A stretch of DNA of 64,000 bases from Candidatus Micrarchaeia archaeon. Its GTDB lineage: Archaea; Micrarchaeota; Micrarchaeia; Micrarchaeales; Micrarchaeaceae. Of this stretch, positions 1,099-18,189 are shown in pieces; positions within the stretch are counted from its first letter, which is position 1, and each line of letters begins with the position of its first letter. The notes under the pieces were generated by a model, which saw only the letters and a list, made by a program, of their open reading frames with translations, did not search any database and was not told where the DNA came from. A program made the translations under genes and the position numbers. The DNA lies in the NCBI GenBank assembly GCA_049966775.1, contig JBMFTZ010000001.1:21167-85166 (forward strand), in the 5' to 3' direction.

Positions 1099-2180
1099 TA
1101 CAACAGCCTCTTAAGGGTCCTAGACGAACTCAGGCTCTGGGCGCCGAGCAGGTCGCCCAGCACCTCCATGAAATTGTACGATATTATGAACGAAAGCACC
1201 ACGCTTATAACGTAGAAAAGCGACGGTTCCATCACGCTGCGTATGAAGCCTATCAAAATCCCTGAGCCCTTGGTGTTGCTCTCCACGATGCTTTGAAGCT
1301 GCGTGAGGGTGCCAGTAACGGAGCTGAAGCTTGATGCGGAAGCGGAGCCGCTCACAAGCGAACTGTATGATGAGCTGCTTGCGACCGGAGCGGATACAGT
1401 AAACGACGAAGTGAATACGTATAACATGAGGGGCAGCACTATGAAGAAACCGACGAACATCCCCAGGAACGCGCCTCCTGCAGCTCTGGTCCACGGGATG
1501 GTGCGCAGCACAATGCCTGCAAAAAAGAACAGCGGGAAGAGCTTGTATACTATCAACAGCACAAACATCGTGGCAAGAAGCAAGCCGAAGAACGCGCCGG
1601 TTATATTGAGCATCATCTTGATCACGCTGTTCACCACGGTAAGCCCGGCCCATGGCGAGAACGCAACGCCAAAGAATACTGGCTGTATCGTGACCTGCAC
1701 TGAAGCCAGGAACGATACCACCATTTCGTTTATGATAAGCTCTATGATAGGCACCACCATGCCAAGCGAGGTGCTGTAGAGCGCCTCGCAGTCGTACATG
1801 TATATGCCGCTTCCGAACGTGCCCTTGCCTATCGCCAGGAAATTACCGGGTGTTGAGACCGAAGTGACCGCAAACGCGCCCAAGAAGACAAATACTATAA
1901 GCAGCGTTATGACCACTTCGCCTATCTCGCTTTTTGCGAACCTGACGAGCTTATCCACTTTTATCGCGTAGCCGATGGCGTAGAGCATGCCTGCTATGAT
2001 GAGCATTATAAGCATCAATATCAGGGATATGGAAAGCAGCGTCGTTACGGAGGTGCCACCGGGCAGCACATTGCCTCCAGTGAAGAGATTGCTGCAGAAG
2101 GCGGCGGCATCTGCGCCAGATATGCTTGGCGCCGCTAACAGAAGCAGGGCAACCAGCAGCAATACGTTTTTGCGCATCAT
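1098..2180 (-). CDS. polytopic membrane protein, tandem-family paralog 4 (signal peptide plus multiple TM helices)
   Basis: 360-aa ORF. N-terminal MMRKNVLLLVALLLLAAPSISG. Motifs KSEIGEVVITLLIVFVF and VLRTIPWTRAAGGAFLGMFVGFFIVLP. Start/stop overlaps with both neighbours. Confidence 0.8.
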   Translation of the reverse strand: MMRKNVLLLVALLLLAAPSISGADAAAFCSNLFTGGNVLPGGTSVTTLLSISLILMLIMLIIAGMLYAIGYAIKVDKLVRFAKSEIGEVVITLLIVFVFLGAFAVTSVSTPGNFLAIGKGTFGSGIYMYDCEALYSTSLGMVVPIIELIINEMVVSFLASVQVTIQPVFFGVAFSPWAGLTVVNSVIKMMLNITGAFFGLLLATMFVLLIVYKLFPLFFFAGIVLRTIPWTRAAGGAFLGMFVGFFIVLPLMLYVFTSSFTVSAPVASSSSYSSLVSGSASASSFSSVTGTLTQLQSIVESNTKGSGILIGFIRSVMEPSLFYVISVVLSFIISYNFMEVLGDLLGAQSLSSSRTLKRLL

Positions 2181-3571
2181 ACCAGCCTCGCCAATCCCGC
2201 AAGCTCAGTGTCGCCTCCGAGCAGTGAGGAGACTCCGAGCACGGCTGACAGTGTAACCATAAGGTTTATGAGCGGCAGGAAATAGGCGGTCACGCCCATT
2301 ATGCCGTAGATCTGAAAGAGCATGTATGTGGCAGGCATCACGCTGCTCGGCGGGCACATCGCGGGCAGGTAGAAATACGGGGCCACGTTGCCGCTTTCTG
2401 CGGCTGAAAGCAAGCCGGCTCCAACGCTGTAGAAAGGTATGAGCAGCACGCCTACGTCTTCGGCCTCGCCTTCTAGTAAGTTGTCACCTGGGGGCATGCA
2501 GCCTAGATGGCCAAGCGCCTGCTGCACGCTTGGCATTGCGAAGAAGTTGAGGGTATATGTGCTTGTCGAGCTGGAAACACTGTTTGAAGGTATGGAGGTT
2601 ACTGTAGAATAGCCGAAGGCTGTGTTGTAGTAGGCGCTGCTGTTTGCAAGGGAAAGATACTCCATCGCGTATATGGCAGGCAGAAAGACGAGGAAACCCA
2701 ATGCAGCTGCAATCAAGAGACCGCCAATCTTCCTTGTAAAGAACACGGAACGGAGCAGCAGCCCGAAGAATATCAGGAACGGCCATACGTCTATCGCTAT
2801 GACGTTAATGGAGAGCTGCGCCACGAACGATTCGACAGCTGTCGTCATCAATGTCCCTAGCGGCGTGAGGAGCCTGTATATCATCGAGTAGCCTGAAAAC
2901 GGGGTAAACTGCACATGCAGCAGGAAATCGGGCACTGAAAGCGTGCCATACAAGGGTATTACGCACGGGCTCACCCACCCGGGGTAGACGCACACGTTAA
3001 CCTGCGGGCTCAGCTTTGAGAGGAAGCCTATCCACGCATCGAACAGAAAAGCGCCGTTGTAGTCTGCTACCGACTGGTTTGTGAGGTTTGCCATTATCAC
3101 GCTCGTGGCAGCAAGCGGATAATCCAGCTGCGCGGTAAGGCTCGGGCTTGAGCCGAGGTTCACCATGCTGCACAGCCCGCTGAAACCTGTAGACGGATTG
3201 CCGCCCAGGTAAGCACCGAGTATGTTGAACGGGTTTGATGTTGTGGATTCGTAGCCGTTTATGTTGTTGCACATTGTGGTTATAGCATTCGAGTTCATAA
3301 GTTTGGTGCTATTGAGGATTGAGATATAGGTGGAAGCTATCACGTACGCGGAGCCAACCACTATGGCTATGAGTATGGCGGTGCCTATGAGCTGGTAGAA
3401 CTCGTTCGTCGCTCCCGCCTTGACCGTGGGGTTGCCAAGGAGCGCGCCTATTATGTACCAAAGCGCTATGAATGCTGAATCGAGCAACAGGGCCATGAGC
3501 ACAAGCGGCATAAGCATGCTTTTCACTGACGTGAATCCGGCATTGAACAGGAACATGCTTATCGGTATCAT
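2177..3571 (-). CDS. polytopic membrane protein, tandem-family paralog 3
   Basis: 464-aa ORF. Motifs TNEFYQLIGTAILIAIV and LLRSVFFTRKIGGLLIAAALGFLVFLP. Ser/Thr/Asn-rich loops between TM blocks. ATGA overlap with the downstream paralog. Confidence 0.8.
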   Translation of the reverse strand: MIPISMFLFNAGFTSVKSMLMPLVLMALLLDSAFIALWYIIGALLGNPTVKAGATNEFYQLIGTAILIAIVVGSAYVIASTYISILNSTKLMNSNAITTMCNNINGYESTTSNPFNILGAYLGGNPSTGFSGLCSMVNLGSSPSLTAQLDYPLAATSVIMANLTNQSVADYNGAFLFDAWIGFLSKLSPQVNVCVYPGWVSPCVIPLYGTLSVPDFLLHVQFTPFSGYSMIYRLLTPLGTLMTTAVESFVAQLSINVIAIDVWPFLIFFGLLLRSVFFTRKIGGLLIAAALGFLVFLPAIYAMEYLSLANSSAYYNTAFGYSTVTSIPSNSVSSSTSTYTLNFFAMPSVQQALGHLGCMPPGDNLLEGEAEDVGVLLIPFYSVGAGLLSAAESGNVAPYFYLPAMCPPSSVMPATYMLFQIYGIMGVTAYFLPLINLMVTLSAVLGVSSLLGGDTELAGLARLV

Positions 3572-3579
3572 TAAGTCAC

Positions 3580-4740
3580 CTACAGATTGCCCCAGAATGT
3601 TGATGCGCCTTCCACGCCGCTGTTCAGGGCCTTTGCAACACCCATCGCAAGCCCCGCCGTGACTCCTATGTTTATCGCAAACATGAATATTCCCACAAAC
3701 ATGAACTTTGAAATCTCCTCTATTATGGTGTTTGTCACATACGGCGCTGTCAAAACGCTTGATGCCAGTGATCCAAGCTCTGCCAGGGGATTGAGACTTA
3801 TGCCGGCGCTGCTCACGAACGACTGCAAGTAAGATGGAGCAGTGCTCGGGTTGCCCGCTACGAGGCTGCTCGAAGGAAGCTCGGCAAAGAACGCGCTTGG
3901 CGAATAGGGCGTGAAGGTGTAAGCGTATGAAAGGTACTTGTATGAGGGGTTGTTTGCCGAAAATATCCAGCTCACCGCGTAACCGTCAAACCCCACCATG
4001 AGCGGGTATACGAGATACGCCGCTATCGCTATGGCAAGAAACGCGTTTGCGGTGTTCCTGAGGTTGCCGCCAACAAACGAGAGGGAGCGCATCACCAGCG
4101 CCACGGGAAGCACCACTATGAACGCGGTGTACTCAAGCAGAGGCAGCATCACCCACTGCAGGTAGAGGGCGCCGATCGTGGTTATGAGAACCATCGCGAA
4201 AACAGACATGTACACGTCGCTTAGTATCTTGAACACCTTGCCAAGGTTCATTCTCGTAGCGAACGAGACTGACAGGCCATTAAATTTTGCCGCAAACGCG
4301 AGCGGGTTATAGCCGTTTAGTATACTGCCGTACGACACCTCGAATATTGTGCTCTCTATGCTGTATTCAACTGACGTGAAGTACACCTTTGATAATAGGC
4401 TCAATCCGGAATTCATCGTAAGGTTTCCTATGTAATAATCAGCGAATTGGAACGGGCTGAGCGCCGATCCGGTCACTGTGCTGCTCATCGAAGTGGAGAT
4501 GCTGCAGGCGGCGCTAGCCATGCCGAGCAGCACCATAATTATTACTGCGCTGAGGAGCGCCTGGGTGAGCTCGGTTCTTACTGCGCTCGTCACCTTTCCG
4601 CTGAACCTTGAAGGCAGAATCCTAGAAATCGCAAGTATAAACGCACCTATAAGCAGGCTTACCAGTATTACGAGCAGGTTTATGCTAAGCCAGCTGTTCA
4701 CATATGTGGAGCCGCCCAATATCGCACATGCGTTTATCAT
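3580..4740 (-). CDS. polytopic membrane protein, tandem-family paralog 2 (most divergent motif)
   Basis: 386-aa ORF. Motifs RTELTQALLSAVIIMVL and VMRSLSFVGGNLRNTANAFLAIAIAAYLVYP. 7-8 nt spacers to neighbours. Confidence 0.8.
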   Translation of the reverse strand: MINACAILGGSTYVNSWLSINLLVILVSLLIGAFILAISRILPSRFSGKVTSAVRTELTQALLSAVIIMVLLGMASAACSISTSMSSTVTGSALSPFQFADYYIGNLTMNSGLSLLSKVYFTSVEYSIESTIFEVSYGSILNGYNPLAFAAKFNGLSVSFATRMNLGKVFKILSDVYMSVFAMVLITTIGALYLQWVMLPLLEYTAFIVVLPVALVMRSLSFVGGNLRNTANAFLAIAIAAYLVYPLMVGFDGYAVSWIFSANNPSYKYLSYAYTFTPYSPSAFFAELPSSSLVAGNPSTAPSYLQSFVSSAGISLNPLAELGSLASSVLTAPYVTNTIIEEISKFMFVGIFMFAINIGVTAGLAMGVAKALNSGVEGASTFWGNL

Positions 4741-4747
4741 ACCAACA

Positions 4748-6091
4748 CTACGTAAGCTTCATCTTCCCTATGCCCATCTTGCTCAGGCTCATCGTGCCGC
4801 CCAGCATCCTTGCTATCTGGTTCACCACGGCGAGCCCTATCACCAGGTCGAACACGAACAGGAAGAACTGGATCAGCAGGTAGCTTGTCTGGTTCACCAC
4901 AAAGTTTAGAATGCCCACTATGCTGCTTGACAGGGGCGAAAAAAATCCGGCATTTGAGCCGGCGTTAAACCCGTCTATCATTTGGGTACCGATATTCGGA
5001 TAGCCTTGCACTACCGGATTGCCGCCCATGACGAACGTGAGCAAAAAGCCCCCACGTATAAAATACAGGTCATTTTCGAAATATTGCACGACGTAATTGA
5101 TCAGTTGCCCTAGAAGACCGGGCGCCGGGGGTGCCGAGCTCACTGACACGATTTGCGAAGGCAGTATGCTGGACAGATAGTCGGATATGGGCTGGTTAAA
5201 GCCCACGAGCAGCACTGGATACACAAGCGAGGCGCCTATGCCGAGAGCAATAAACGTGCCGCCGATGCCACGCGTGAAAGGCAGCGCCCTGAGTATAATG
5301 CCGACAGGCAGCAGCCCGCCCAGGCCCAGCAACATGACCACGCCCAAGAAGTCGTACTGGAACTGGAACGCGTAGAGCATTGGGAATATGACAAGGGTGA
5401 ACATGTCCTTTATGAATGAGAACACCGCCGCAGAAGAGAGCGTCTCTATGTAGCTGCTAACGTAAATGTTAGCAAGGGAGCCAAACTGGATTGTCAGTAT
5501 GGGCACCGGCACTGGCGGTATCGGCAGCGGGAACCACGTGCCCAATGATATGCTCTTCAGCGCGGCTATGCCCTGCGACACGCCCATCATGGTAGCAAAG
5601 TCGACATACGACTGCGCAAGCCCGTATGCAAGGTAGCTTGTGGCGCCGTTGCACAGCCCCTGGAGGTTTGTGTTAAGGCTGCCCAATATGGATGATGAAC
5701 CGCTCGTTTGCAGCGACGCACTGTTGCCCACAAGCATGTTTGCTATGGCGCTTGCTATGACAATCGATGAGAACAAGACCACTATTATGATTACGCTTTT
5801 CGAAACTTCCCAGAGCTCCGTCCTATACCAGCCTTTCAGCGGGCCGTAGTTGAGCACCTCTCCAGCCATATAGGAAACCGCTATAAGGAGGAATGAGATG
5901 GCAATGCCGATTGCTGCGAGCCCGATGAACGTGGCGAAAGCTGAAGCGCCAAGAGTCATGCTGCATACGCTCTGCGCCGTGGACATGCCGGCAAGCGCGA
6001 GCAGCAAAAGCAGCATAAGCGGGGCGGCATGGCGCATACTGCGAGAGTAGCGTGCTGCAGCCTGCAAACCGCCCGGCCTTCGCTGCGTCAT
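4748..6091 (-). CDS. polytopic membrane protein, tandem-family paralog 1 (signal peptide)
   Basis: 447-aa ORF. Hydrophobic leader LMLLLLLALAGMSTAQS. Motifs RTELWEVSKSVIIIVVL and ILRALPFTRGIGGTFIALGIGASLVYP. Its start overlaps the stop of the small upstream ORF (ATGA). Confidence 0.8.
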   Translation of the reverse strand: MTQRRPGGLQAAARYSRSMRHAAPLMLLLLLALAGMSTAQSVCSMTLGASAFATFIGLAAIGIAISFLLIAVSYMAGEVLNYGPLKGWYRTELWEVSKSVIIIVVLFSSIVIASAIANMLVGNSASLQTSGSSSILGSLNTNLQGLCNGATSYLAYGLAQSYVDFATMMGVSQGIAALKSISLGTWFPLPIPPVPVPILTIQFGSLANIYVSSYIETLSSAAVFSFIKDMFTLVIFPMLYAFQFQYDFLGVVMLLGLGGLLPVGIILRALPFTRGIGGTFIALGIGASLVYPVLLVGFNQPISDYLSSILPSQIVSVSSAPPAPGLLGQLINYVVQYFENDLYFIRGGFLLTFVMGGNPVVQGYPNIGTQMIDGFNAGSNAGFFSPLSSSIVGILNFVVNQTSYLLIQFFLFVFDLVIGLAVVNQIARMLGGTMSLSKMGIGKMKLT

Positions 6092-6306
6092 GTGATCACT
6101 ACATAATGCAAACGATACGCATCTGCTTCACATATGAATGAAATCGCATCGCCTTGAAACCCTACAATAGATGCAACGGCGCTGCTTGCCTCGGGGCATT
6201 CATCAACAGGCATTCCATACCTATTGGGATGAAGCGCCCTTTCTGCTTTTGGAGGGCGTGCTGCAACAATATCTAGCCCGGATTTGCGCGCGACTGCAAG
6301 TTCCAT
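6088..6306 (-). CDS. small soluble hypothetical protein (72 aa), possibly the first, leaderless gene of the paralog operon
   Basis: In-frame ATG at 6306 inside track ORF 6088..6615: MELAVARKSGLDIVAARPPKAERALHPNRYGMPVDE.... An AT-rich TATA-like box (rc TAAGTATATATTATTG, about 6325-6340) sits about 27 nt upstream. The stop overlaps the start of the next gene. There is no homology support. Confidence 0.4.
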   Translation of the reverse strand: MELAVARKSGLDIVAARPPKAERALHPNRYGMPVDECPEASSAVASIVGFQGDAISFICEADAYRLHYVVIT

Positions 6307-6437
6307 CACATCCCTTTTGTTCTGCAATAATATATACTTATCGCTATTATTATTATCGTTATTTTTGGTTCCTGCGATTGATGTTTTGAAGCCCAGCACG
6401 GAGCGATAAACTTTCGCGGGTACCAAGCAGGAAAGGG

Positions 6438-7160
6438 CTATCGCTTGAGTAGTCTGAAGCGCTTCATGTACATCTCGCTCTGCAGCACCGCAAGGAAGGG
6501 CAGTATGAATAGGGAGTTGAATACGAGCATCGCGTACCTCGAGTAAACGGTGCCCGAAGCTGCTATGAACACAAAATCGAACAGCGTGATAAGCGCGATC
6601 GCAAGAAAGAGCCACAGTATGAAATAGTCGAAGCGCCTGAAGAAGAAGGAGACGCTTGCCCTGAAAGACCTTAGCACCTTGTTGTCATCTATCACAATGG
6701 AAGCGGGCGCGTAGAACACGAACGGCGTAACAACAAGTATTGCCACGCTGGTGATTATGCCTGAATAACCGGTGCCGAAGCTTAGCATGTCAACCAGTAT
6801 TATAACGGCGCTCAGCATCAGCAGCACTATGAAAACCTTGCTCGTATACCTTTCAAGGCCCCGCATTACCTCCCTTGTTATCTTTCTCTGGACGCGGCTG
6901 TGCTTTACTACCACGTTTATCGCAACGATTGCGAAGCTCAGGAAGAGGAGCGAGAAAAACAGCGACACGATTACCACCATGGATGAAAGCATGCTCATGT
7001 TGGAGAAGATGCTGCCGGTGCGCAGGAATATGCCGCCCGCATCATTGTAAGTTGGAAAGGCAGCAAATACAGGTATCAGGAACGCTATTACGAAGGCGAG
7101 CGAAAACGATAGTATTAGCTTTATGTTGCCCGCGTATGTGGACCATGCGTAAGAGAGCAC
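6438..7160 (-). CDS. integral membrane protein (about 6 TM), unknown function, operon partner of the pilin-like gene
   Basis: 240-aa ORF with alternating hydrophobic helices and basic loops (KHSRVQRKITREVMRGLERY, FFFRRFDY). It lies directly downstream of 7247..7627 on the same strand. Confidence 0.7.
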   Translation of the reverse strand: MLSYAWSTYAGNIKLILSFSLAFVIAFLIPVFAAFPTYNDAGGIFLRTGSIFSNMSMLSSMVVIVSLFFSLLFLSFAIVAINVVVKHSRVQRKITREVMRGLERYTSKVFIVLLMLSAVIILVDMLSFGTGYSGIITSVAILVVTPFVFYAPASIVIDDNKVLRSFRASVSFFFRRFDYFILWLFLAIALITLFDFVFIAASGTVYSRYAMLVFNSLFILPFLAVLQSEMYMKRFRLLKR

Positions 7161-7246: not shown

Positions 7247-7627
7247 TTAGGTGGCCTTGCAAGCGCTTGCAATGGAAGCGTTGCCCGTTATGACCTGGAG
7301 TATGTACGGCGCTATGACAGCTATGATCACGCCGATGACGCCGCCGAGGATCATTCCCATGCCGTAGCCCTGCACCTGCCCCTTCGTTTGGCCTGGTATT
7401 ACGTGCGCGCCGGCATAGAGGGCGCCTCCAAGTATTATAAGCACAAGGCCGAGTATGAATATGACGCTGACCACACCGTTATATACGCTGCATATCGCAT
7501 TTACTGCAGTAGTTGAGGATTGCCCATACGCAGCTGAAACAAGGCTCAGCAAAAGCAATAACGACATTGCGGGTCCGAGGATTCCCCTCGCGTTGAATAA
7601 CTTGCCGAACAATAAGCCCGTGTTCAT
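7247..7627 (-). CDS. VirB2/TrbC-like (CedA1/TedC-like) two-helix pilin-type protein
   Basis: 126 aa. Long leader ending LLLLLSLVSAAYG|QSS. It continues NAICSVY, then Gly-rich TM1 (VVSVIFILGLVLIILGGALYAG), a short basic loop (HVIPGQTKGQVQG), Gly-rich TM2 (MGMILGGVIGVIIAVIAPYILQVITG) and a short tail. This matches the architecture, and partly the sequence pattern, of Agrobacterium VirB2 as I recall it (..NNICTF..LAVLGIVAIGISWMFGRASLGLVAGVVGGIVIMFGASFLGKTLTGG). Confidence 0.6.
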   Translation of the reverse strand: MNTGLLFGKLFNARGILGPAMSLLLLLSLVSAAYGQSSTTAVNAICSVYNGVVSVIFILGLVLIILGGALYAGAHVIPGQTKGQVQGYGMGMILGGVIGVIIAVIAPYILQVITGNASIASACKAT

Positions 7628-7836: not shown

Positions 7837-9531
7837 ATGAGGATATTGCAGCTTGACGTGGACAACATCACATACGAACTCGTAAAGCCAGAAGCGAGCG
7901 TGTACGAGGATTCGAACGAGAAAAAGGTGAGCGTAGACGATGCAATGGCTCTGCTCGTGAGCGTCGAGAAGGGCGACACGGAGAGCACCGCGGATCTGGC
8001 AGTGAAGGAAGCGGCAGAAACAATGGGCAAGCTGAAGAGGGAGCGCGTTGTGGTATACCCTTTCGCACACCTGAGCAACGACTTGGCTGAGCCGAAAGAG
8101 GCGATGCACATTATTGACTACATGTTCGACGCGCTGAACGGTCGCTTCGAAGCCAAAAAGGCGCCATTTGGCTGGAACAAGGCGCTCTCACTGAGCATAA
8201 AAGGGCACCCCCTGGCTGAGCAATCCAAGAGCTACGGCGCGGAAGGCGCAGGAGCCAAGCAGTATGCTAAGGCGAAGCCGGTGAGCGTAAACACTGCGAT
8301 AGTGAGGAAGAGCGATGTATCGGGCTTGCCCGCCAACGACCATAGAACCATCGGCGAGAAGCTTGACCTTTACAGCTTCCAGGAGGTATCGCCGGGCATG
8401 GTTTATTGGCACAGGAACGGCAACGTTATATTCAGGCAGCTCCTTGATTTTATGAGGGAGCTGCTCGACCACTACGACTACAGTGAGATAAGCACGCCGA
8501 CGCTTGCCAACATCGCACTCTGGCATGTGAGCGGCCACATAGAGCACTACAAGGACAACATGTTCATATTCGACAACAATGGGGAAAGCATGGGCATGAA
8601 GCCGATGAACTGCCCTTCTACAATACTGATATACAAATCGAGGAAATGGAGCTACAAGGAGCTGCCGTTCAGGACAGCCATATTCGACCATGTCTACAGG
8701 AACGAGATAAGCGGAGCGCTTACCGGGCTCTTTAGGGTGAGGGAGCTGACCCAGGATGACGGTCACATATTTGCCAGGGAGGATCAGATAGAAAACGAGG
8801 TGGCGCTGCTGCTCGAACTTGTAAACAAGGTGTACAGCACATTCGGCATGAAGTACAAGGCGAAGCTGTCGACGATGCCTGAAGACCACATGGGCGACGA
8901 GAAGCTGTGGGAAAAGGCGACCGAAGCGCTGAGGAAGGCACTCGATACCAACAAGATGGAATACGAGGTAAAAGAGAAAGAGGGCGCATTCTACGGGCCA
9001 AAGATTGACTTTGACGTGCTTGATTCTCTGGGCAGGTCGTGGCAGTGCGCCACCATCCAGCTCGATTACCAGCTGCCGCTCAGGTTTGGCATCACATATA
9101 CGGGTGAGGATGGAAAGGAGCACACGCCGGTGCTTATCCACAGGGCCGTACTCGGCACCATTGAGCGCTTCATGGGCATCATGATCGAGCATTTCAATGG
9201 AAGGTTCCCCACATGGCTGGCGCCCGTGCAGGTGCGCGTGATAACCATATCAGAGCATGAAAACGACTACGCCATGGAGCTATACAAGGCCCTGAAGAGC
9301 AACCACATAAGGGCGTACCTCGATGACAGCGACCGCACGCTTGAATACAAGATAAGGGAAGCCCAGACGCTAGAGGTGCCTTACATGCTTGTCGTAGGCA
9401 AAAAGGAAGCGGAATCGCATAGCGTGACAGTCAGGCAGAGGTCAGGCAGGCAGGAGCACGGCGTAAGCATAGACGCTTTCATAAAACGGCTATTGGGCGA
9501 GATAAAGGAGAGGAAGCTTGAGAGCGGATAG
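7837..9531 (+). CDS. thrS: threonyl-tRNA synthetase, archaeal type with N-terminal editing domain
   Basis: 564 aa. Class II core motifs (HRTIGEKLDLYSF, FRVRELTQDDGHIF, YGPKIDF, PVLIHRAVLGTIERF). C-terminal anticodon-binding domain. N-terminal MRILQLDVDNITYELV archaeal editing-domain-like start. Confidence 0.95.
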   Translation: MRILQLDVDNITYELVKPEASVYEDSNEKKVSVDDAMALLVSVEKGDTESTADLAVKEAAETMGKLKRERVVVYPFAHLSNDLAEPKEAMHIIDYMFDALNGRFEAKKAPFGWNKALSLSIKGHPLAEQSKSYGAEGAGAKQYAKAKPVSVNTAIVRKSDVSGLPANDHRTIGEKLDLYSFQEVSPGMVYWHRNGNVIFRQLLDFMRELLDHYDYSEISTPTLANIALWHVSGHIEHYKDNMFIFDNNGESMGMKPMNCPSTILIYKSRKWSYKELPFRTAIFDHVYRNEISGALTGLFRVRELTQDDGHIFAREDQIENEVALLLELVNKVYSTFGMKYKAKLSTMPEDHMGDEKLWEKATEALRKALDTNKMEYEVKEKEGAFYGPKIDFDVLDSLGRSWQCATIQLDYQLPLRFGITYTGEDGKEHTPVLIHRAVLGTIERFMGIMIEHFNGRFPTWLAPVQVRVITISEHENDYAMELYKALKSNHIRAYLDDSDRTLEYKIREAQTLEVPYMLVVGKKEAESHSVTVRQRSGRQEHGVSIDAFIKRLLGEIKERKLESG

Positions 9532-9537
9532 TGCAGC

Positions 9538-10887
9538 TCAGCGCCTTTCCCTGCTGGCTCCAAATTCCCTTACTGCGCTATGCGCGGGTACCTCCCTCCT
9601 TATGTAAGCTTCTATGCCCCTTACCATCTTTGCATTCCTGTATGCGTAGTACACAGCGCCTATGGCAAATATGAGCAGCGCCACCGCGAGGCTTTCCACC
9701 CCAAGGTAGAGCATCACGAGCAGTATCGTGGCAAAGCCCGAGAGCGGTATCAAAAAGAAGAGCCTGTGCCTTATCAGCGCCCTCTTGTCCTTCTCGAGCC
9801 TGAGCCAGAGGCTCAGGGCGGAGATGTTTATTATCGCGTATGCCGTCAATATGCCCGCGTTTGACAGCTCCACTATGGTCCTAAAAGAGACGAATAGTAT
9901 GAATAAAACCGCGAGCAGCGAAGACAGCAGTATGGCGTTTATCGGAGTTGAAAATTTGTCTATGTAGGAAAGCTTCTTTGGCAGCTCGCTGTCCCTGCCC
10001 ATAGCGAAGAAGACCCTTGAGACTCCGAGTATGCCAGTAAATATCACGCCCGCGGTGGCCACGACGCCGCCTATCGCCACCGCTATGTCGAGCGCGGTTA
10101 TGTGCAGCGAGCTAATCGCATAGGAGAGCGGCGCGGCGGAGTGCTCGAACTGCTGGTACGGCACAAGCCCCACGGCGCCCAAAGCGATGCAGATGTAGAG
10201 TAGAGATGAGATTATTATGGATACCATTATCGCCATGGGTATGGTGCTCCTGGGATTTTTCACCTCGTCGCCCACTGTTGTCACACGCGAGAACCCCGTA
10301 AATGCGAAGAATATAAGCGCAGATCCAGCAAGCACGCCATTGGCGCCATTAGGCGCGAAATTGGATATGTTTGCAACTTGGAAATGTGCCATCGAGAACG
10401 CCACAAAAAGCGCCAGTACCGCAAGATTTATGCCTACCATTATCGCAATTGTGCGGGCAGAATGCTTTATGCCCAGGATGTTTATTATCGCGAATGCTGC
10501 TATCGCCGCTATCGCATAGTATGCTGGATATATGCTCGTGCCTACGAGCAGGTTGAGATAGCTGCCGAAGCTGAGGCCGACTGCCGCCACGGCTATTATG
10601 TTACCTATGGTCCACATCCACCCGGCGAGAAATCCCGCGCTTGGTGCAAATGCATCCTTGGCGTATTCGTACACGCCGCCTTCCTTTGCCACGTGAAGTG
10701 CTATCTCGGAAAAGCTGAGGCCGCTCAGCACAGACACTATGGCAGCTATGGCTATTGATAAAACAACTGAAGGGCCCGCATCGCCTGCAGCAAGCCCTAT
10801 GATCACAAATATGCCCGCGCCGATTATGGCACCAAGGTTTATCATGAGCGCGTCGAAGAATGTGAGCGCGCGTTTCAGCTTGTACAT
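9538..10887 (-). CDS. APC-superfamily amino acid/polyamine permease
   Basis: 449 aa, about 12 TM. N-terminal LTFFDALMINLGAIIGAGIFVIIG is typical of APC transporters. Confidence 0.85.
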   Translation of the reverse strand: MYKLKRALTFFDALMINLGAIIGAGIFVIIGLAAGDAGPSVVLSIAIAAIVSVLSGLSFSEIALHVAKEGGVYEYAKDAFAPSAGFLAGWMWTIGNIIAVAAVGLSFGSYLNLLVGTSIYPAYYAIAAIAAFAIINILGIKHSARTIAIMVGINLAVLALFVAFSMAHFQVANISNFAPNGANGVLAGSALIFFAFTGFSRVTTVGDEVKNPRSTIPMAIMVSIIISSLLYICIALGAVGLVPYQQFEHSAAPLSYAISSLHITALDIAVAIGGVVATAGVIFTGILGVSRVFFAMGRDSELPKKLSYIDKFSTPINAILLSSLLAVLFILFVSFRTIVELSNAGILTAYAIINISALSLWLRLEKDKRALIRHRLFFLIPLSGFATILLVMLYLGVESLAVALLIFAIGAVYYAYRNAKMVRGIEAYIRREVPAHSAVREFGASRERR

Positions 10888-13040: not shown

Positions 13041-14246
13041 ATGAAGAAGGAATACGATATCAAGAAGGAGCTCAAGAGGCTTTCAAGCATAAGGGGCTCG
13101 GGCACTGAGCTTATCAGCGTTTATATACCGCCAGGATTCAACATTTCTGACGAAATAGGAAGGCTTAGGGACGAATATGGCCAGGCTTCCAACATAAAAT
13201 CGAAGACCACGCGGCTGAACGTGCAGGGCGCGATCGAGCGCATCATGCAGTACCTTAAGCTCTACAAGGAGCCACCCAAGAGCGGCCTTGCTGTTTTTGC
13301 AGGCAACATCTCCAGCATGCAGGCAAATCCCGACATAGAGCTGTTTTCGATAGAGCCGCCGATGCCGATAAAGGCCAACATATACAGGTGCGACTCCACG
13401 TTCCTTCTCGAGCCCATAGAGGAGATGCTCGAGGCCAAGGAGCAGTACATAATAGTGGTGATGGATGGCAGGGAGGCCACAATAGCACTGCTCAAGGGAA
13501 CGCACATAAACGTGGAGAAGAAGCTGCATTCTTTCGCACATGCAAAGGTCAGGAAAGGGGGCCAGAGCGCTGGAAGATATGAGCGCGCGATAAGCGAGAG
13601 CATCGAGGACTTCTACAAGCAGATAGGCGATTCCGTAAACGCGGTTTATGAAAAATACGGAGGCAAGATAAACGGCGCCATCATAGGCGGGCCAGGCCCG
13701 GCGAAGGACAACTTTGTCAAGGCCAAGACGCTAAACTACCAGATAAAAGTGCTGGGCGTGTTCGACACGGGCTATACCGACGAGCACAATGGCATAGACG
13801 AGCTGCTTGAAAAGGCGAAGGAGCTGCTTGCCGAGCAGGCGTCAGTGAAGGAGCGCCGGATCATGGACCGCTTCCTCAACGAGGTGTCAAAGAATGGCCT
13901 TGCGGCATACGGTTACGAGAAAGTGAAGGAGGAGCTTGAAAACAACAACGTGACGAGGCTTATAATAAGCGACGACATCGACCTAGCAAGGGTGTCATAC
14001 AGATGCAATTCGTGCGGCGCCGAGTTCACCGCGATAGAGCAGGGTAATACAAGGCAGCAGAAGCATTCGTGCGGCGGGAGCCTCACCATCACAAAGGAGG
14101 ACGATCCCATCAGGGAGCTTATAGACAAGGCCGACAAGGACGGCATTGAGGTTGTTTTCGTCTCTACGGACAGCCAGTACGGCAATGAATTGCTGCTTGG
14201 CTTCCAGGGCATAGGCGCCATGCTGAAATACAAGCACACCAGATAG
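13041..14246 (+). CDS. prf1: peptide chain release factor aRF1
   Basis: 401 aa. NIKS motif (QASNIKSKTTR), GGQ motif (RKGGQSAGRYER) and a C-terminal Zn-ribbon-like CNSCG...HSCGG. Confidence 0.95.
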   Translation: MKKEYDIKKELKRLSSIRGSGTELISVYIPPGFNISDEIGRLRDEYGQASNIKSKTTRLNVQGAIERIMQYLKLYKEPPKSGLAVFAGNISSMQANPDIELFSIEPPMPIKANIYRCDSTFLLEPIEEMLEAKEQYIIVVMDGREATIALLKGTHINVEKKLHSFAHAKVRKGGQSAGRYERAISESIEDFYKQIGDSVNAVYEKYGGKINGAIIGGPGPAKDNFVKAKTLNYQIKVLGVFDTGYTDEHNGIDELLEKAKELLAEQASVKERRIMDRFLNEVSKNGLAAYGYEKVKEELENNNVTRLIISDDIDLARVSYRCNSCGAEFTAIEQGNTRQQKHSCGGSLTITKEDDPIRELIDKADKDGIEVVFVSTDSQYGNELLLGFQGIGAMLKYKHTR

Positions 14247-14279: not shown

Positions 14280-15473
14280 TCATACAGAGCATGCGCTGGT
14301 TATTGCCGATATTGAAGTGCCAGTTATAATCGAAAGCACGTACGGCGCCACCATCGCTATGATCACGCCGATGACGCCGCCGAGGATCATTCCCATGCCG
14401 TAGCCGAGCACAGGCCCGCGCTGCTGGCCCGGCAGCACATGACCGCCGGCATAGAGGACGCCGCCGAGGATCATGAGCGTAAGGCCTAGTATGAATATGA
14501 CACTCTCTATTGTGGTGTAAACGGAGCAGATGGCGTTCGTAGCTGCGCCAAGGTTGGCGATCGAGCCTGAGCCAAAGGTGGCCGAACTAGAACCTGAGCC
14601 AGAGCCTGAGCCAGAGCTCGAACCCCCAGTTGGGGGCGTGCCGCCGGAAAACACTGTGGTGGTAGACGTGCTGGTTGATGTTGTAGTGGTGGTGGTAAAT
14701 ATGTATGCTACAACCGCATAGCCGCCAGCCCCGTTAAGCGATCCCGAAACGGTATACGTTCCTGGCGATAAGTCTATGCACTGTGCTGCATAAGTGGTTT
14801 CATACGAATCGCCGCCGTTGTCGTAGAATAACTGGGTGCAACCGGGGGGCACAGTTATGCTCGAGCATTCAAACCAGCCGCATGACAGCGATAACACCAC
14901 GTCTGACGGGTTTGACACCGAGAAGGCCCAGTTGAACGAAGATGTGCCGCCGGACGCCGCGCCGCTCTCCGTAGTGTACGGGACAGACGAGTCAACAGCC
15001 ACGCCGCCGACAGCTATGTCCGAGTGGTCGGAAGCATCACTGCAGACGTTTGACCCCTGATTCCCTGCGCTTGCATAAGTTGAATATGAAGTGGCGTCGG
15101 GCGACCACGTATAGCTCCTTAGCGCGCCGTTGCCATCACCGCCATTGCAGAAGTAATAGTTGGCGCCGCTAGGCAGCGTGTAGCTGGCCGACCTGCTGCC
15201 CGTGGTCCCACCATACCCCACTATTGAAAATACAGATGTAGACGGTGAGCTTGAGCTCGCTGGGCAGCTGTAAGTTGACGAGCAGTAGCTAGAAGGGGCA
15301 GCACAGCCAACATAGCCGCCAACAACGCAGCAGCTTTCATAGCTCGGGCATGTTACGACACAGCCGCTGCCGGGGCATAATATGGTATAAGCGGTGGATG
15401 TATTAGAAACAAGCGAGAGGGCCGCAATGGCAAGCACCACCGATAGCATAATACTACTATAATGCTCGAACAT
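14280..15473 (-). CDS. modular surface protein: N-terminal anchor/signal, Cys-rich head, beta-rich Ser/Thr domain, Thr/Ser/Gly linker, C-terminal VirB2-like two-helix module
   Basis: Track ORF is 14280..15548. The likely start is M26 (ATG at 15473; MFEHYSSIMLSVVLAIAALSLVS). Cys cluster CPGSGCVVTCPSYESCCVVGGYVGCAAPSSYCSSTYSC. Linker TTTTTSTSTSTTTVFSGGTPPTGGSSSGSGSGSGSSS. The C-terminal ~85 aa is closely similar to 7247..7627 (NAICSVY..VIFILGL..LGG.LYAG.HV.PGQ..G...GYGMGMILGGVIGVIIA..APY.L..ITG). Confidence 0.75.
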   Translation of the reverse strand: MFEHYSSIMLSVVLAIAALSLVSNTSTAYTILCPGSGCVVTCPSYESCCVVGGYVGCAAPSSYCSSTYSCPASSSSPSTSVFSIVGYGGTTGSRSASYTLPSGANYYFCNGGDGNGALRSYTWSPDATSYSTYASAGNQGSNVCSDASDHSDIAVGGVAVDSSVPYTTESGAASGGTSSFNWAFSVSNPSDVVLSLSCGWFECSSITVPPGCTQLFYDNGGDSYETTYAAQCIDLSPGTYTVSGSLNGAGGYAVVAYIFTTTTTTSTSTSTTTVFSGGTPPTGGSSSGSGSGSGSSSATFGSGSIANLGAATNAICSVYTTIESVIFILGLTLMILGGVLYAGGHVLPGQQRGPVLGYGMGMILGGVIGVIIAMVAPYVLSIITGTSISAITSACSV

Positions 15474-15570
15474 GCTTCCAGCCTCGCCGAACGCTTTCCG
15501 GCAATATATTAAGCACCGAAAAGATATTAATAATGTGCGCGCATGCATAGGGCACGAGCGCCGTGCGCCT

Positions 15571-16125
15571 TTACGAGAGAGCAGGTGCTATGCCGCACTC
15601 GCCGAGGAACGCCGCATCGCCCTGCATTACGAGCTTGTCTGGCGTTATTATCGTGCTGTTCACGCTGCTGTAGTTTATGAACACGGAAGGCATGCTTTTG
15701 CTCACATTAATGCATTCGCTTACCGGCAGCTGCGTGGAATTGGATGCTTCCCCGAGCGCCTTGGAGCTCGTGAAGCATGCGGTCTGATTGATAACAAAGA
15801 AGTCAATAGTGGAAGCATTCCTGTGGTATTTGGCGCTCGAAACTATGTTCTCCACGATGCTTGTGGCGCAAGGCTCTGTGCTTGCAAACACCGTGCCGTT
15901 ATAGGCGGTCATGTATATCGCTACGCTCTTCGCTGAATGAAAGTTGCTTTCAAATGTGTAGAAGGGCTGCCCCGTGCTTGGATGATAGAAAAAGAGCAGC
16001 AGATCCAGCGCCACGAGCGCCGCTATCGCGTAATATGCAGCAGCATTGCCTTTTTCTGCTTGGCGCGCCGCGGCTCCAGCCTTCACGGCTTTGCCTGCAT
16101 TTCCATTGTTGTTGCTTCTCTGCAT
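15571..16125 (-). CDS. type II membrane-anchored protein with a 4-Cys ectodomain
   Basis: 184 aa. Basic N-terminus, one TM (AAAYYAIAALVALDLLLFFY), then a ~135-aa domain with 4 Cys and several N-x-S/T sites. The domain is homologous to the C-terminal domain of 16132..18189. Confidence 0.7.
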   Translation of the reverse strand: MQRSNNNGNAGKAVKAGAAARQAEKGNAAAYYAIAALVALDLLLFFYHPSTGQPFYTFESNFHSAKSVAIYMTAYNGTVFASTEPCATSIVENIVSSAKYHRNASTIDFFVINQTACFTSSKALGEASNSTQLPVSECINVSKSMPSVFINYSSVNSTIITPDKLVMQGDAAFLGECGIAPALS

Positions 16126-16131
16126 TGCTTT

Positions 16132-18189
16132 TCACCCTAGCAGCTTGCCAAGCGTGCAGCCGCTGCCATACGTCGCATTGCCCTGCGCGGAGAGCATGTT
16201 ACCGTACACGCCTTTGTAAGCGATATAGCTCGGCGAGCCGCTGCCGAGGTGTATTATGGGCGTGCCCGCAGCTAGCAGCTTGTTGAAGCACTGCACTCCC
16301 GAAAGCGATGCGTTGGCAGAAATGCACGAATAGTTCTGCGCTGCGAGTATCGCCACGCTCTTGCCTTCACTCTGCAGCGACTTCTGCAGCGAAGCTGCGC
16401 ACAGAAGCTGAGCCGCATTGAACGAGCCCGAATCGTTGACTATTATGGCAGCGCTGTGCGCGCTGTGGAGCCTGCTCGCAAACATCGAAAATGGTAGGAA
16501 CGCGTTAGCGCTCTGCGCCGCTGCGAACGTCGCATATGTATAGATGAGCACCAGTATGAACAGCACTATGAAAACGATGCTCCACGAGCGCCTCACCCGC
16601 CTGTTTAGCTTTATCTTCTTTCTCTTTTTGAACCTTGCATATGTTAGCGAGTATACGAGCAGCACTATTATTACGCCTATTATGAACGATAGAAGCGCCG
16701 CATATGCTGGCGATGCGGCGATCTTGGCGCTTACCGAACCGGTTGGGCTGTATAGCATGTAGCTTACTATGCCCCCGTCAAAATCCTTTACCAGTGCACC
16801 GAAAGTGAACGGCGTGCCGGAAAATGCGGCTATGCCTTTGCTCACGGCACTCTCGTTGGCAAGCATCGCCTGCAGCGAGGAGCTGCTCACGCCCTGCATG
16901 AGCTCAAGGGCAATGCCCTGCTGCTCCGCGGAGAGCTTTGCAAGCTCTGGTGGCACATGCCTGAAATCCAGCTGGTCCCTTATCGCGGCGACAGATGCGC
17001 TGCTTATGCTGGAGTTGAGCGGAGCGTAGAGCGCGTCAAGCTTCGAATACAGCCCGGTTACGTTAGAGATGCTGGCAAGCAGCTCTGTATTAGCAAGCGC
17101 TATGCTCTGGTTTATGCCCAGCTTCTTTATTGCTGCAAAAGTGGCTACTAGTTTAGACACGCTCTCATTTAGCGTTGCATTGTTTATTCTCGACAGCAGC
17201 GCCTGCGCATTGAAAAGCGTGGAGTTGTATTTTGGCATTGTCGCATTGAGGAAAGCGTCAAAAGCGGCGGTTTCCTTAGCCCTCACTACAGGCGCTATAT
17301 ACGCATATGCGAGGTTTGAGGCGTTTGCGCTGAGCTGCATGATGCTCGCATTGGAAAGCGGCAGCATCGAAAGCTGCTGCACCGTGTTCTGCATGCTTTG
17401 CAGCAAAGTGGAATTGAAAGTGGTGTATTCGCACATTCCTATGTCGACGCAGTACCACGGTTCCTGCGTTGGCGCCAGATAGCTTGGGCACGAAGAAAAG
17501 TTTGAAGCGGAGAAGTTCTGCGGCACTGGAAATATCGGGTTCTGAGGCAGCACCGTTGCTATGTGAGAGATGTTGCTGAGGGCGTTTTTCATTGCGGATA
17601 TGCTCGCATAAGGATCGACAGAAGCGTTGTGAAGAGCATTGTAGAACGCGCTGTAGTTTGCCACGAGGTTGCCGTATTTCGCAGAGAAGTTCATTATGCC
17701 AAGGCCCATTACGCCTGTCGGTCCACCGTAATCGGGGAGCCAGTATGAGCATATCGGCACGGTCTGGCACGAGAAGCAGCCGTTTGTGGCGTTGCACGTA
17801 TAATAGTTAAGCCCTGTTTCTATGCGGCAGTCGTCAAGCGGCGGCGCGGCCTGCGCCTCGTAATTGCTCATTGAAGCATTGAGAGATGCGAGCACTGACT
17901 TGCTCGGCGCATACACACTCAGCACATAAGGCCTAAGCGCCTTGTATATCTGCGTTGCGTTTGTGAGCATTGAGTAGTTGCCATGAGTGGCATTTACGAC
18001 AATGAAAGAGATGCCGTGCTGCATTATCGTGTATGCATTGCCGCCAATGCTTTCATTATGCATCGAATAGGAGCTTATCGTCGAATTGGGCATGTATATA
18101 TGAAGGTACTGCACAAGCGACGCATTGGCGCCCAGTGCGGTAGTTGCGAGGAGTGAAAGCATAATTGCAGCAAGAATTTCAACGCGCAT
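16132..18189 (-). CDS. large sequon-rich surface glycoprotein with two TM helices and a C-terminal 4-Cys domain
   Basis: 685 aa. Signal peptide MRVEILAAIMLSLLATTALGANAS. By my count roughly 25-30 N-x-S/T sequons. TM hairpin around ARFKKRKKIKLNRRVRRS. The C-terminal ~125 aa resemble 15571..16125. Confidence 0.8.
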   Translation of the reverse strand: MRVEILAAIMLSLLATTALGANASLVQYLHIYMPNSTISSYSMHNESIGGNAYTIMQHGISFIVVNATHGNYSMLTNATQIYKALRPYVLSVYAPSKSVLASLNASMSNYEAQAAPPLDDCRIETGLNYYTCNATNGCFSCQTVPICSYWLPDYGGPTGVMGLGIMNFSAKYGNLVANYSAFYNALHNASVDPYASISAMKNALSNISHIATVLPQNPIFPVPQNFSASNFSSCPSYLAPTQEPWYCVDIGMCEYTTFNSTLLQSMQNTVQQLSMLPLSNASIMQLSANASNLAYAYIAPVVRAKETAAFDAFLNATMPKYNSTLFNAQALLSRINNATLNESVSKLVATFAAIKKLGINQSIALANTELLASISNVTGLYSKLDALYAPLNSSISSASVAAIRDQLDFRHVPPELAKLSAEQQGIALELMQGVSSSSLQAMLANESAVSKGIAAFSGTPFTFGALVKDFDGGIVSYMLYSPTGSVSAKIAASPAYAALLSFIIGVIIVLLVYSLTYARFKKRKKIKLNRRVRRSWSIVFIVLFILVLIYTYATFAAAQSANAFLPFSMFASRLHSAHSAAIIVNDSGSFNAAQLLCAASLQKSLQSEGKSVAILAAQNYSCISANASLSGVQCFNKLLAAGTPIIHLGSGSPSYIAYKGVYGNMLSAQGNATYGSGCTLGKLLG

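Follow-up and report, generated by a model that had tools for sequence, protein, structure and literature searches.

A putative modular VirB2-type pilin with an apparently exchangeable ectodomain, encoded beside the S-layer gene of a Micrarchaeota genome

Pilins of the TrbC/VirB2 family (PF04956), such as VirB2 of Agrobacterium tumefaciens, TrbC of RP4 and TraA of F, are small secreted proteins. Behind a cleavable leader they consist of two long hydrophobic helices, between which runs a short basic loop, and they are encoded together with a VirB4-class ATPase and polytopic membrane proteins. Some of these pilins are cyclised (TrbC, TrhA), some members of the VirB2/TrbC/TraA group are also processed at the C-terminus, and we know of no VirB2-family pilin that carries a large folded ectodomain. 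Modular pilins are known from the type IV pili of Gram-positive bacteria, since PilB and PilC of Streptococcus sanguinis carry a vWA or a lectin module on the pilin. In archaea, to our knowledge, systems related to type IV secretion systems (T4SS) have so far been tied to DNA import only in the Crenarchaeota, where they are the Ced and Ted systems. VirB2-like pilins (CedA1/TedC) are known from these systems, which also include CedA/TedA and CedB/TedB (Beltran et al. 2023, PMC9905601). In bacteria of the candidate phyla radiation (CPR), the Patescibacteria, there are tandem arrays of divergent small VirB2-like pilins that have been proposed to diversify the interactions with host surfaces (PMC12102498), and a T4SS-like system is essential for the epibiotic growth of Candidatus Southlakia. 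Here, we describe a gene on the minus strand (14280-15473) of a stretch of 64,000 nucleotides (nt) from a Candidatus Micrarchaeia archaeon (assembly GCA_049966775.1, contig JBMFTZ010000001.1, positions 21,167 to 85,166; hereafter the window), the product of which joins a VirB2-like module to a large secreted head. The balance of the evidence tilts, without great confidence, towards a modular VirB2-type pilin as the product of this gene. The apparatus to which it would belong is chromosomal and Ced/Ted-like, would derive from a T4SS, and is conserved throughout the Micrarchaeota.

The open reading frame (ORF) encodes 397 amino acids (aa) and is annotated by NCBI as ACP5UH_00180, with 389 aa (protein P0121, from a Candidatus Micrarchaeia metagenome-assembled genome, MAG). 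An alternative in-frame ATG at 15548 would give 422 aa; the start at 15473 is preferred because a GAGG (15482-15485) lies 9-12 nt upstream of it, with an AT-rich, TATA-like box at 15503-15512, and because it matches the N-termini of the orthologs. Hydropathy gives exactly three hydrophobic segments (residues 4-28, 314-347 and 353-389). The first of these, together with the eight Cys of residues 33-70 (CPGSGCVVTCPSYESCCVVGGYVGCAAPSSYCSSTYSC), bears out the hydrophobic N-terminal signal and dense Cys cluster of the initial annotation, which was made from the DNA letters alone. The leader is an ordinary one, with no archaeal class III (type IV pilin) signal motif. There follow, as also claimed, a Ser/Thr/Gly/Tyr-rich region, which holds six more Cys, and a low-complexity linker (residues 260-309, 80% Ser/Thr/Gly, including TTTTTTSTSTSTTTVFSGGTPPTGGSSSGSGSGSGSSS); the folded part of the former, however, covers about 180-190 aa (residues ~80-259) and not ~230 aa, and alignments of homologs to it begin at residues ~61-78. 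The whole protein has 16 Cys and one N-glycosylation sequon. The features are listed in Table 1.

Table 1. Positions of the fused gene, its parts, the free pilin gene and the neighbouring genes in the window.
Feature	Position	Strand	Basis
Fused gene, putative modular VirB2-like pilin	14280-15473	-	ORF listing and translation
Sec-type signal peptide/hydrophobic leader, residues 1-~30	15384-15473	-	Hydropathy of residues 4-28; alignment with ortholog signal peptides; putative cleavage site
Cys cluster, 8 Cys in 38 aa, residues 33-70, small disulfide-rich head	15264-15377	-	Sequence and ortholog pattern
All-beta ectodomain of ~180 aa, 4 invariant Cys	14697-15236	-	phmmer, alignment, AlphaFold2, Foldseek
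Thr/Ser/Gly linker of 50 aa, ending in the conserved ..NLG-A junction	14547-14696	-	Composition
C-terminal VirB2/TrbC-like two-helix pilin module, residues 310-397	14283-14546	-	Identity to the free pilin; signature residues
Putative expression signals of the fused gene	15482-15512	-	Read from the sequence
Free 126-aa VirB2-like pilin, paralog of the fused module	7247-7627	-	Family match, AlphaFold2
Conserved operon, polytopic membrane proteins	1-7160	-	Gene order in relatives
240-aa polytopic protein	6438-7160	-	
447-aa polytopic protein	4748-6091	-	
386-aa polytopic protein	3580-4740	-	
464-aa polytopic protein	2177-3571	-	
360-aa polytopic protein	1098-2180	-	
685-aa protein, upstream of the fused gene	16132-18189	-	
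184-aa protein, upstream of the fused gene	15571-16125	-	

The C-terminal module (88 aa) had been described as closely similar to the whole mature part of the free 126-aa protein, and this holds: residues 311-396 of the fused protein match positions 7507-7256 (residues 41 to the end of the free protein) with 69.8% identity over 86 aa (tblastn, E = 9.4e-31), the sole other locus in the window that the fused protein matches. The module ends in ..ACSV, without a basic tail, and does not match an anchor of the PGF-CTERM/archaeosortase type (one transmembrane (TM) segment and a basic tail), as it consists of two helices with a conserved polar loop. An AlphaFold2 (AF2) model of the free protein, made with the family alignment, has a signal helix followed by two long helices (38-73 and 81-114) around a loop of seven residues (74-80), with a mean predicted local distance difference test score (pLDDT) of 79. 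The model of the free pilin and the hydropathy of the fused protein thus show a leader and two long hydrophobic helices around a short loop with a basic residue, K/R82 being conserved, as in the TrbC/VirB2 pilins. The basic loop residue parallels the lumen-facing Arg that is a feature of the T-pilus, and the leader is of the signal-peptidase type, as in TedC (PMC9905601).

The VirB2-like nature of the module is supported at the level of the family. At E<=0.01, 28 of the 60 free homologs match PF04956 (TrbC/VirB2), the best of them at 1.3e-8, and eight of the ten homologs tested score 28.0-35.4 bits, above the gathering score of 27.9 bits, over profile positions ~4-98 of 98. One of those above it (P0002) is 72% identical to the free pilin of the window, while two further relatives (P0003 and P0005, 76% and 66% identical to it) reach 20-22 bits. 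A hypothetical protein annotated in a Candidatus Micrarchaeia MAG is identical to the free pilin, and the family itself comprises 152 homologs at E<=1e-3, the named ones from Micrarchaeota, some of them labelled 'Marsarchaeota'. In a scan of one genome per GTDB species, 63 of the 65 loci were from Micrarchaeota, including the complete genome of Candidatus Micrarchaeum sp. A_DKE and a Mancarchaeum MAG. No relatives of the pilin were found on PLSDB plasmids (tblastn) or IMG/VR viral contigs, and hence the system is regarded as chromosomal; this and its presence throughout the phylum set it apart from the TrbC/VirB2 pilins, and the idea of a conjugation system of a mobile element was rejected. 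Within this system, the free 126-aa protein is probably the major pilin. Labels other than Micrarchaeota occurred only at L031 (DATLRT010000039.1, 'Acidiferrales bacterium') and L052 (JAVYSI010000063.1, 'Methanothrix sp.'). Since both contigs carry operon genes of the Micrarchaeota type, they are probably mis-binned, rather than cases of horizontal transfer.

A pair of Cys brackets the hairpin, C46/C123 in the free pilin and C316/C395 in the fused module. Its conservation is 0.67-0.88 in free and fused modules and 1.0 in tandem modules, and it is a difference from the TrbC/VirB2 pilins. By analogy with the cyclisation of TrbC and TrhA, the pair may form a disulfide clamp that joins the extracellular ends of the hairpin.

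The fused gene has orthologs at the same place in other genomes. The order 685-aa gene, 184-aa gene, fused gene and aRF1 is common to the window and the loci L001 and L008; L013 has the S-layer, 685-aa, 184-aa and fused genes in this order, and L007 is cut off before the 685-aa gene. All these proteins share, in the alignment, the signal peptide, a related Cys cluster (its pattern CP..C...C..Y.S.C is kept in L001, L008 and L013), the Ser/Thr/Gly linker, the junction PPN[LI]G-x-A-x-NAIC and the module, and they differ in the middle. The ~180-aa beta domain of the 397-aa window protein is replaced in L001 and L007 (280 aa) by an immunoglobulin (Ig)-like domain of ~110 aa with a YTYTW motif and a weak match to SprB repeats, and there is no middle domain in L008 (220 aa) or in L013 (at least 200 aa, at a contig end). 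The fused modules of the window and L001 are 83% identical, and the free pilins 79%, while the head has been replaced. Judging from these sequences, the head is an exchangeable cargo, which at orthologous genes is either missing, an Ig-like domain or a beta domain. The initial annotation had raised the concern that the ORF might be a mis-joined assembly of two genes. This is excluded by syntenic orthologs from independent assemblies that have the same N- and C-terminal parts, and by the uninterrupted reading frame, with a GC content that is continuous across the ORF; the differences in the middle are, hence, domain swapping at an orthologous locus.

The L001 ortholog (L001:1151-1993, plus strand) reads as 280 aa from a TTG start, whereas public gene calls in three assemblies give 64, 129 or 212 aa, so that fused pilins are likely to be under-annotated in databases. 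Cys-rich leaders resembling that of the window protein were also seen in short N-extended pilins (P0041, P0060 and those of L027, L029, L031 and L055).

Fusions of the module are common in the phylum and not restricted to this slot. A census by tblastn of the module over the fetched loci, with the ORFs rebuilt, gave 115 distinct module-bearing ORFs from 66 loci, 50 of them extended in some form. Free modules (about 120-160 aa) make up 65 of these ORFs, and the module is N-extended in 34 (in 26 of them by more than 140 aa, with proteins of up to 1081 aa), internal in nine, C-extended in five and in tandem in two (four modules in L030 and seven in L036). Seven loci (L017, L022, L026, L030, L039, L046 and L066) have between one and four large fused genes immediately 5′ of the free pilin gene or genes, on the same strand, at the head of the operon. 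Nearly all the large fused proteins have N-terminal signal peptides, and their ectodomains fall into one larger cluster and a few small families, with many singletons besides, among them the window head; a Pfam search with ten large fused proteins from other loci gave only weak Ig-like and InlB B-repeat matches.

Across 121 distinct modules, the family signature is retained when the module is fused. C46, Y49, G67, Y71, P78, G79, G83, Q86, Y88, G91 and G96 are conserved at 0.76-0.97 in the N-extended set (n=34), and the loop signature P78-G79-x-x-[K/R]82-G83-x-x-Q86-G87-Y88 is conserved there to a degree close to that of the free set, C123 being less strictly kept (~0.68). A pure TM tether would need no conserved polar loop, which points to a shared partner, such as the assembly machinery, neighbouring pilins or lipid; as far as residue conservation can tell, the module thus argues for a role beyond membrane anchoring. 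The initial annotation had itself warned that the module might turn out to be a common C-terminal anchor on many unrelated surface proteins, like a sorting signal. Taken literally, this is what is seen, with 34 N-extended ORFs and mostly unrelated ectodomains, but the signature kept at 76-97% and the position of many of these genes in the pilin operon, upstream of a free pilin gene, speak against a generic sorting signal. Hence, the idea of a pilin fusion is generalised by the census rather than reduced to such a signal. Loop position 82 (about 7382-7384 in the window; R352 in the fused protein) stays basic but differs by class: Lys is found at 0.86 in free modules, Arg at 0.68 in N-extended ones and Arg in 100% of the internal ones.

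Two of the census ORFs could be called poly-pilins, one of 632 aa (L030:~8700-10600, plus strand) and one of 758-781 aa (L036:~3300-5600, plus strand). Both start with a signal peptide and an ectodomain, which are followed by four (L030) or seven (L036) complete tandem modules, each with its own Cys pair and separated by short Ser/Gly/Thr linkers; they may be polyprotein precursors, pre-assembled pilus layers or membrane proteins with 8-14 TM segments. In the C-extended pilins (L012:10094-10330, L019:10109-10354, P0029, P0068 and P0083), the leader and module are followed by a Ser/Thr or poly-Gly linker and a small Cys-rich domain. The occurrence of Cys-rich extensions at either terminus, or at both, fits an extracellular location of both termini, as in VirB2-type pilins.

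The free pilin gene stands before a large operon. Besides the five polytopic proteins of Table 1, a sixth gene (the start of a homolog of a 362-aa protein) runs past the start of the window. In a close relative (L001-L003), the pilin gene is followed on the same strand by genes for proteins of 213, 428, 388, 465, 355, 362, 420, 278 and 277 aa and then by that of an ATPase of 505 aa, in which DUF87, AAA_10 and TraG P-loop domains are recognised, and this order is kept in about 50 Micrarchaeota loci (tblastn with the window and L001 proteins); the ATPase gene of the window is, thus, expected beyond its start. A complete ATPase of 502 aa in L049 matches DUF87 (4.3e-19), AAA_10, the TraG P-loop domain and TrwB. 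The best NCBIfam matches of the ATPase are CedB (8.5e-20), CedD and VirB4-like conjugal ATPases, all below the cut-offs, and it is taken as a member of this class and not as an ortholog.

Between the pilin and the ATPase there are about ten conserved genes (L001:10559-20378; window 1-7160), mostly for polytopic proteins of 213-465 aa. These proteins match no meaningful Pfam or NCBIfam family, apart from one marginal holin_5 match (E 0.01, 16 vs 100 bits). In L049, a 116-aa ORF directly after the ATPase gene (13831-14181, plus strand) has a weak match to a DsbA-like thioredoxin (PF01323, E 0.0012, below the cut-off); if the match is real, the operon would encode a disulfide oxidoreductase, in keeping with the many Cys of the ectodomains and the Cys pair of the pilin.

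Going by its gene content, the operon is best described as a chromosomal, lineage-specific T4SS-derived apparatus that is analogous, and not orthologous, to Ced and Ted. Like these, it is a 'domesticated' T4SS derivative on an archaeal chromosome. It encodes several polytopic proteins besides the VirB2-like pilin, CedB is the best NCBIfam match of its ATPase, and, as for TrbC/VirB2 pilins, the pilin is encoded with a VirB4-class ATPase and polytopic membrane proteins. Unlike in Ced/Ted, the operon is much larger, and there are pilin fusions and pilin arrays, none of which have been reported for Ced/Ted; the pilin has no detectable similarity to CedA1/TedC (phmmer and the family hidden Markov model (HMM) against PDB chains), and the ATPase stays far below the CedB cut-off. 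The operon as a whole is an uncharacterised machine and points to a cell-contact apparatus. It also resembles the system of the Patescibacteria in being a chromosomal, relaxase-less, T4SS-like system with multiple VirB2-like pilins in ultra-small episymbionts; those organisms, however, are bacteria with small pilins, for which no fused ectodomains or adhesins are reported (PMC12102498).

A search with the full 397-aa protein gave many low-complexity candidates and matched only the protein itself and P0122. With the head alone (phmmer, residues 29-259, against 1.84 billion representatives), there are 51 relatives at E<=1e-3 (27 at <=1e-10), aligned over residues ~61-259. The domain has four invariant Cys (residues 109, 144, 212 and 232) and matches no Pfam family. 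Its carriers include MJ1_0774 of Nanobdella aerobiophila and YN1_2240 of a Nanoarchaeota, both from cultivated DPANN archaea, as well as proteins from Nanoarchaeota and Micrarchaeota MAGs. At least 13 of them (including P0122, P0128, P0129, P0141, P0142 and P0145) start with class III, type IV pilin-like N-termini, e.g. ..QSAMEYL.TYGWA.., and others (P0138, P0143 and P0147) are anchored by a single C-terminal TM span with a basic tail. None of the other carriers has the VirB2-like module, so that the window protein alone combines both. Among these carriers, the C-terminal motifs '...Y.Q.I.IENSC' or '...AYPPNG[VI]MP....' recur, in one set of proteins (P0135, P0140, P0144, P0148, P0149, P0151, P0156, P0158, P0163 and P0168) and in a second (P0125, P0131, P0134, P0136 and P0154); they may serve DPANN surface proteins as additional signals for sorting or anchoring.

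In the AF2 model (alignment of 27 sequences), the head is all-beta, with a pLDDT >94, and the preceding Cys cluster is of low confidence (pLDDT 47-62). A structure search for an adhesin or lectin fold had been proposed in the initial annotation. Foldseek gave no significant match in the PDB (best E 2.6e-3, TM-score ~0.35), and thus no solved homolog, but 29 matches at E<1e-3 in BFVD, with TM-scores of 0.5-0.57, many of them to predicted 'minor tail proteins' of actinophages and one annotated as CenC-like carbohydrate-binding. Resemblances to HutD/bicupin and collagen-binding domains were rejected as too weak. The likeness to phage minor tail proteins and the occurrence on type IV pilin-like DPANN proteins support the adhesin-like character that had been suggested for the ectodomain. 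Carriers and fold together indicate that the head is a mobile extracellular module, probably ligand-binding, which DPANN archaea mount on filament-type anchors.

Taken together, these observations are consistent with the following scheme. The fused protein would be exported by Sec and its leader removed, and the C-terminal hairpin would insert as in VirB2, with both termini outside and the short basic loop inside, as hydropathy and the topology of the family suggest. The outside portion would consist of the Cys cluster, the disulfide-bonded beta domain and the probably glycosylated spacer of ~50 aa. As the hairpin is 70% identical to the free pilin and has all of its polar signature residues, it would be recognised by the same, CedB/VirB4-like machinery, and may be co-assembled as a minor or tip subunit into a pilus of the 126-aa pilin, or be docked at the pilus platform. 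The head, displayed in this way outside the S-layer, would act as an adhesin or receptor-binding module and would probably serve to recognise a host or partner cell. The wider proposal that the Micrarchaeota, which are DPANN episymbionts, have a T4SS-derived pilus serving as an organelle of host recognition and transfer, with modular VirB2 pilins (large adhesin heads, rapidly exchanged, at either terminus) and tandem poly-pilins, is put forward tentatively, as a possibility that we would not call probable.

Several observations weigh against the fused protein being a pilin subunit. In the window itself, neither the fused protein, nor its C-terminal 107 aa, nor the free pilin matches PF04956 even at E<=10, so that, unlike the TrbC/VirB2 pilins, the window proteins fall below the Pfam threshold, and the only contact of the free pilin with Pfam is PF18895 (T4SS_pilin) at E 0.62. 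The free pilin and the fused protein (phmmer) and the family HMM found no pilin among PDB chain sequences (a 2026 copy, in which the conjugative pilins of archaea and bacteria that were solved in 2023 should be present), and a Foldseek search of the PDB with the hairpin model gave only non-significant helical-hairpin matches (best E 0.57), hairpins carrying little 3Di information. The ATPase is far under every NCBIfam equivalog cut-off (e.g., 70.9 vs 700 bits for CedB), and hhalign of the pilin profile found no VirB2-like N-terminus, as in CedA, in the 447-aa protein; with that negative result and no family match, a VirB6 identity is not claimed for the polytopic proteins. The phage-tail likeness of the head compares predicted with predicted models, at modest TM-scores. 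Classical pilin polymerisation is hard to picture for the internal modules and for the 4x and 7x tandem arrays, and a bulky head on every subunit could not pack in a homopolymer, which would leave the fused protein a minority or tip subunit only. The fused gene lies 7 kb from the pilin operon and adjoins the S-layer gene string, and in the literature searched no pilus is reported for Micrarchaeota, so that polymerisation rests on homology.

In the main alternative, the two-helix hairpin would be a static anchor, a reusable tether for diverse surface proteins under the S-layer that does not polymerise and whose likeness to the free protein reflects common descent only. The module does end many large secreted proteins with mostly unrelated ectodomains and almost no Pfam domains, internal and tandem modules exist, and the window gene has the S-layer gene and two glycoprotein-like genes as its neighbours and stands outside the pilin operon; moreover, neither a pilus nor a link between Micrarchaeota and VirB2 or T4SS was found in the literature, the coverage of which was incomplete. 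A tether, however, needs hydrophobicity only, whereas the fused modules retain, at 76-97%, both the loop P-G-x-x-[KR]-G-x-x-Q-G-Y and the signature of Gly and Tyr residues. Between genomes, the module is as conserved as the free pilin (83% vs 79%), and the helices of 34-36 residues exceed a simple membrane span. In addition, many fused genes are located directly 5′ of the free pilin gene in the ATPase operon, and simpler anchors were available, as other carriers of the beta domain use single-span C-termini or pilin-type N-termini. We therefore regard the static anchor as unlikely, though by no means negligible.

A precursor that is cleaved at PPNLG|A, so that an ordinary mature pilin is left and the ectodomain is set free, either soluble or bound to the S-layer, with the module acting as a carrier for export or membrane targeting, is improbable. 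The motif PPN[LI]G-[AGP]-A.NAIC does precede the module immediately in the syntenic orthologs, at the position of the signal-peptidase site of the free pilin (AYG|QSS..AVNAIC), and C-terminal processing occurs in some VirB2-type pilins. It is also in keeping with this that cleavage of their leader is known (PMC9905601). The fused protein, however, starts with a normal signal peptide as it is, other fused families do not generally have the junction motif, C-terminal and internal fusions would remain unexplained, and no protease gene is evident among the operon genes. That the ORF is an artefact, in which a surface-protein gene and a pilin gene were joined by mis-assembly or by fusion of their frames, might be thought from the single exact copy of this domain combination among 1.84e9 representatives, but we give it next to no credence, in view of the syntenic orthologs with a continuous frame in independent assemblies from other samples, the 33 further N-extended module ORFs in other genomes, and the lack of a frame break or GC discontinuity.

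If the fused protein is a modular VirB2-type pilin, the nearest concept would be, by analogy, the modular type IV pilin of Gram-positive bacteria. As in these and in the T4SS adhesins VirB5 and PrgB, a moiety that polymerises or docks on the machinery would bear a bulky adhesive module and turn the filament as such into an adhesin, and the same beta domain that is joined to a VirB2-type module here is found elsewhere on archaeal type IV pilin-like N-termini. The type IV pilins, however, belong to a different filament superfamily from the helical-hairpin, lipid-associated VirB2 type, and the Micrarchaeota head is attached N-terminally through a linker that is long and flexible; VirB5 and PrgB are not fused to a pilin but exist as proteins of their own. 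From the TrbC/VirB2 pilins, the window protein differs in that the module stands behind an extracellular head and linker of ~300 aa. In the literature searched, the coverage of which was incomplete, we found no description of a T4SS-like operon, VirB4-type pili or VirB2-like pilins in Micrarchaeota, nor of VirB2-family pilins fused to large ectodomains.

The locus gives concrete candidates for host recognition, attachment and material exchange by DPANN archaea: a chromosomal T4SS-like operon, present throughout the Micrarchaeota, with a pilin module that has repeatedly been joined to large, fast-changing surface domains, and a new disulfide-bonded beta domain of ~180 aa that is common to surface proteins of cultivated Nanobdellota and of Micrarchaeota and resembles the receptor-binding domains of phage tails. 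Should the fusions be built into the pilus or cap it, the conjugative-pilus superfamily would have its first modular, cargo-bearing pilins. They would then be a naturally occurring counterpart of engineered pilus display and would provide testable candidates for determinants of host specificity, e.g., in the cultured Candidatus Micrarchaeum harzensis A_DKE, the operon of which is that of L054. The Micrarchaeota pilus, if true, would be an archaeal counterpart to the essential T4SS and the pilin arrays of CPR bacteria.

The fused gene is, as the initial annotation had it, the last in a string of three (685 aa, 184 aa and fused gene) downstream of the gene of an S-layer-like protein, which has 1001 aa and matches PF05124 (E 1.8e-20). 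N-glycosylation sequons are numerous in these neighbours, with 29 in the 685-aa protein, seven in the 184-aa protein and 22 in the S-layer protein, which has no Cys. The 685-aa protein has hydrophobic segments at its C-terminus, and neither it nor the 184-aa protein matched anything meaningful in Pfam or NCBIfam. A homolog of the 184-aa protein is present without the fused gene in L051. In the window, L001, L008 and L013, the 685-aa and 184-aa genes form a conserved pair, with the S-layer gene on one side and the fused gene on the other.

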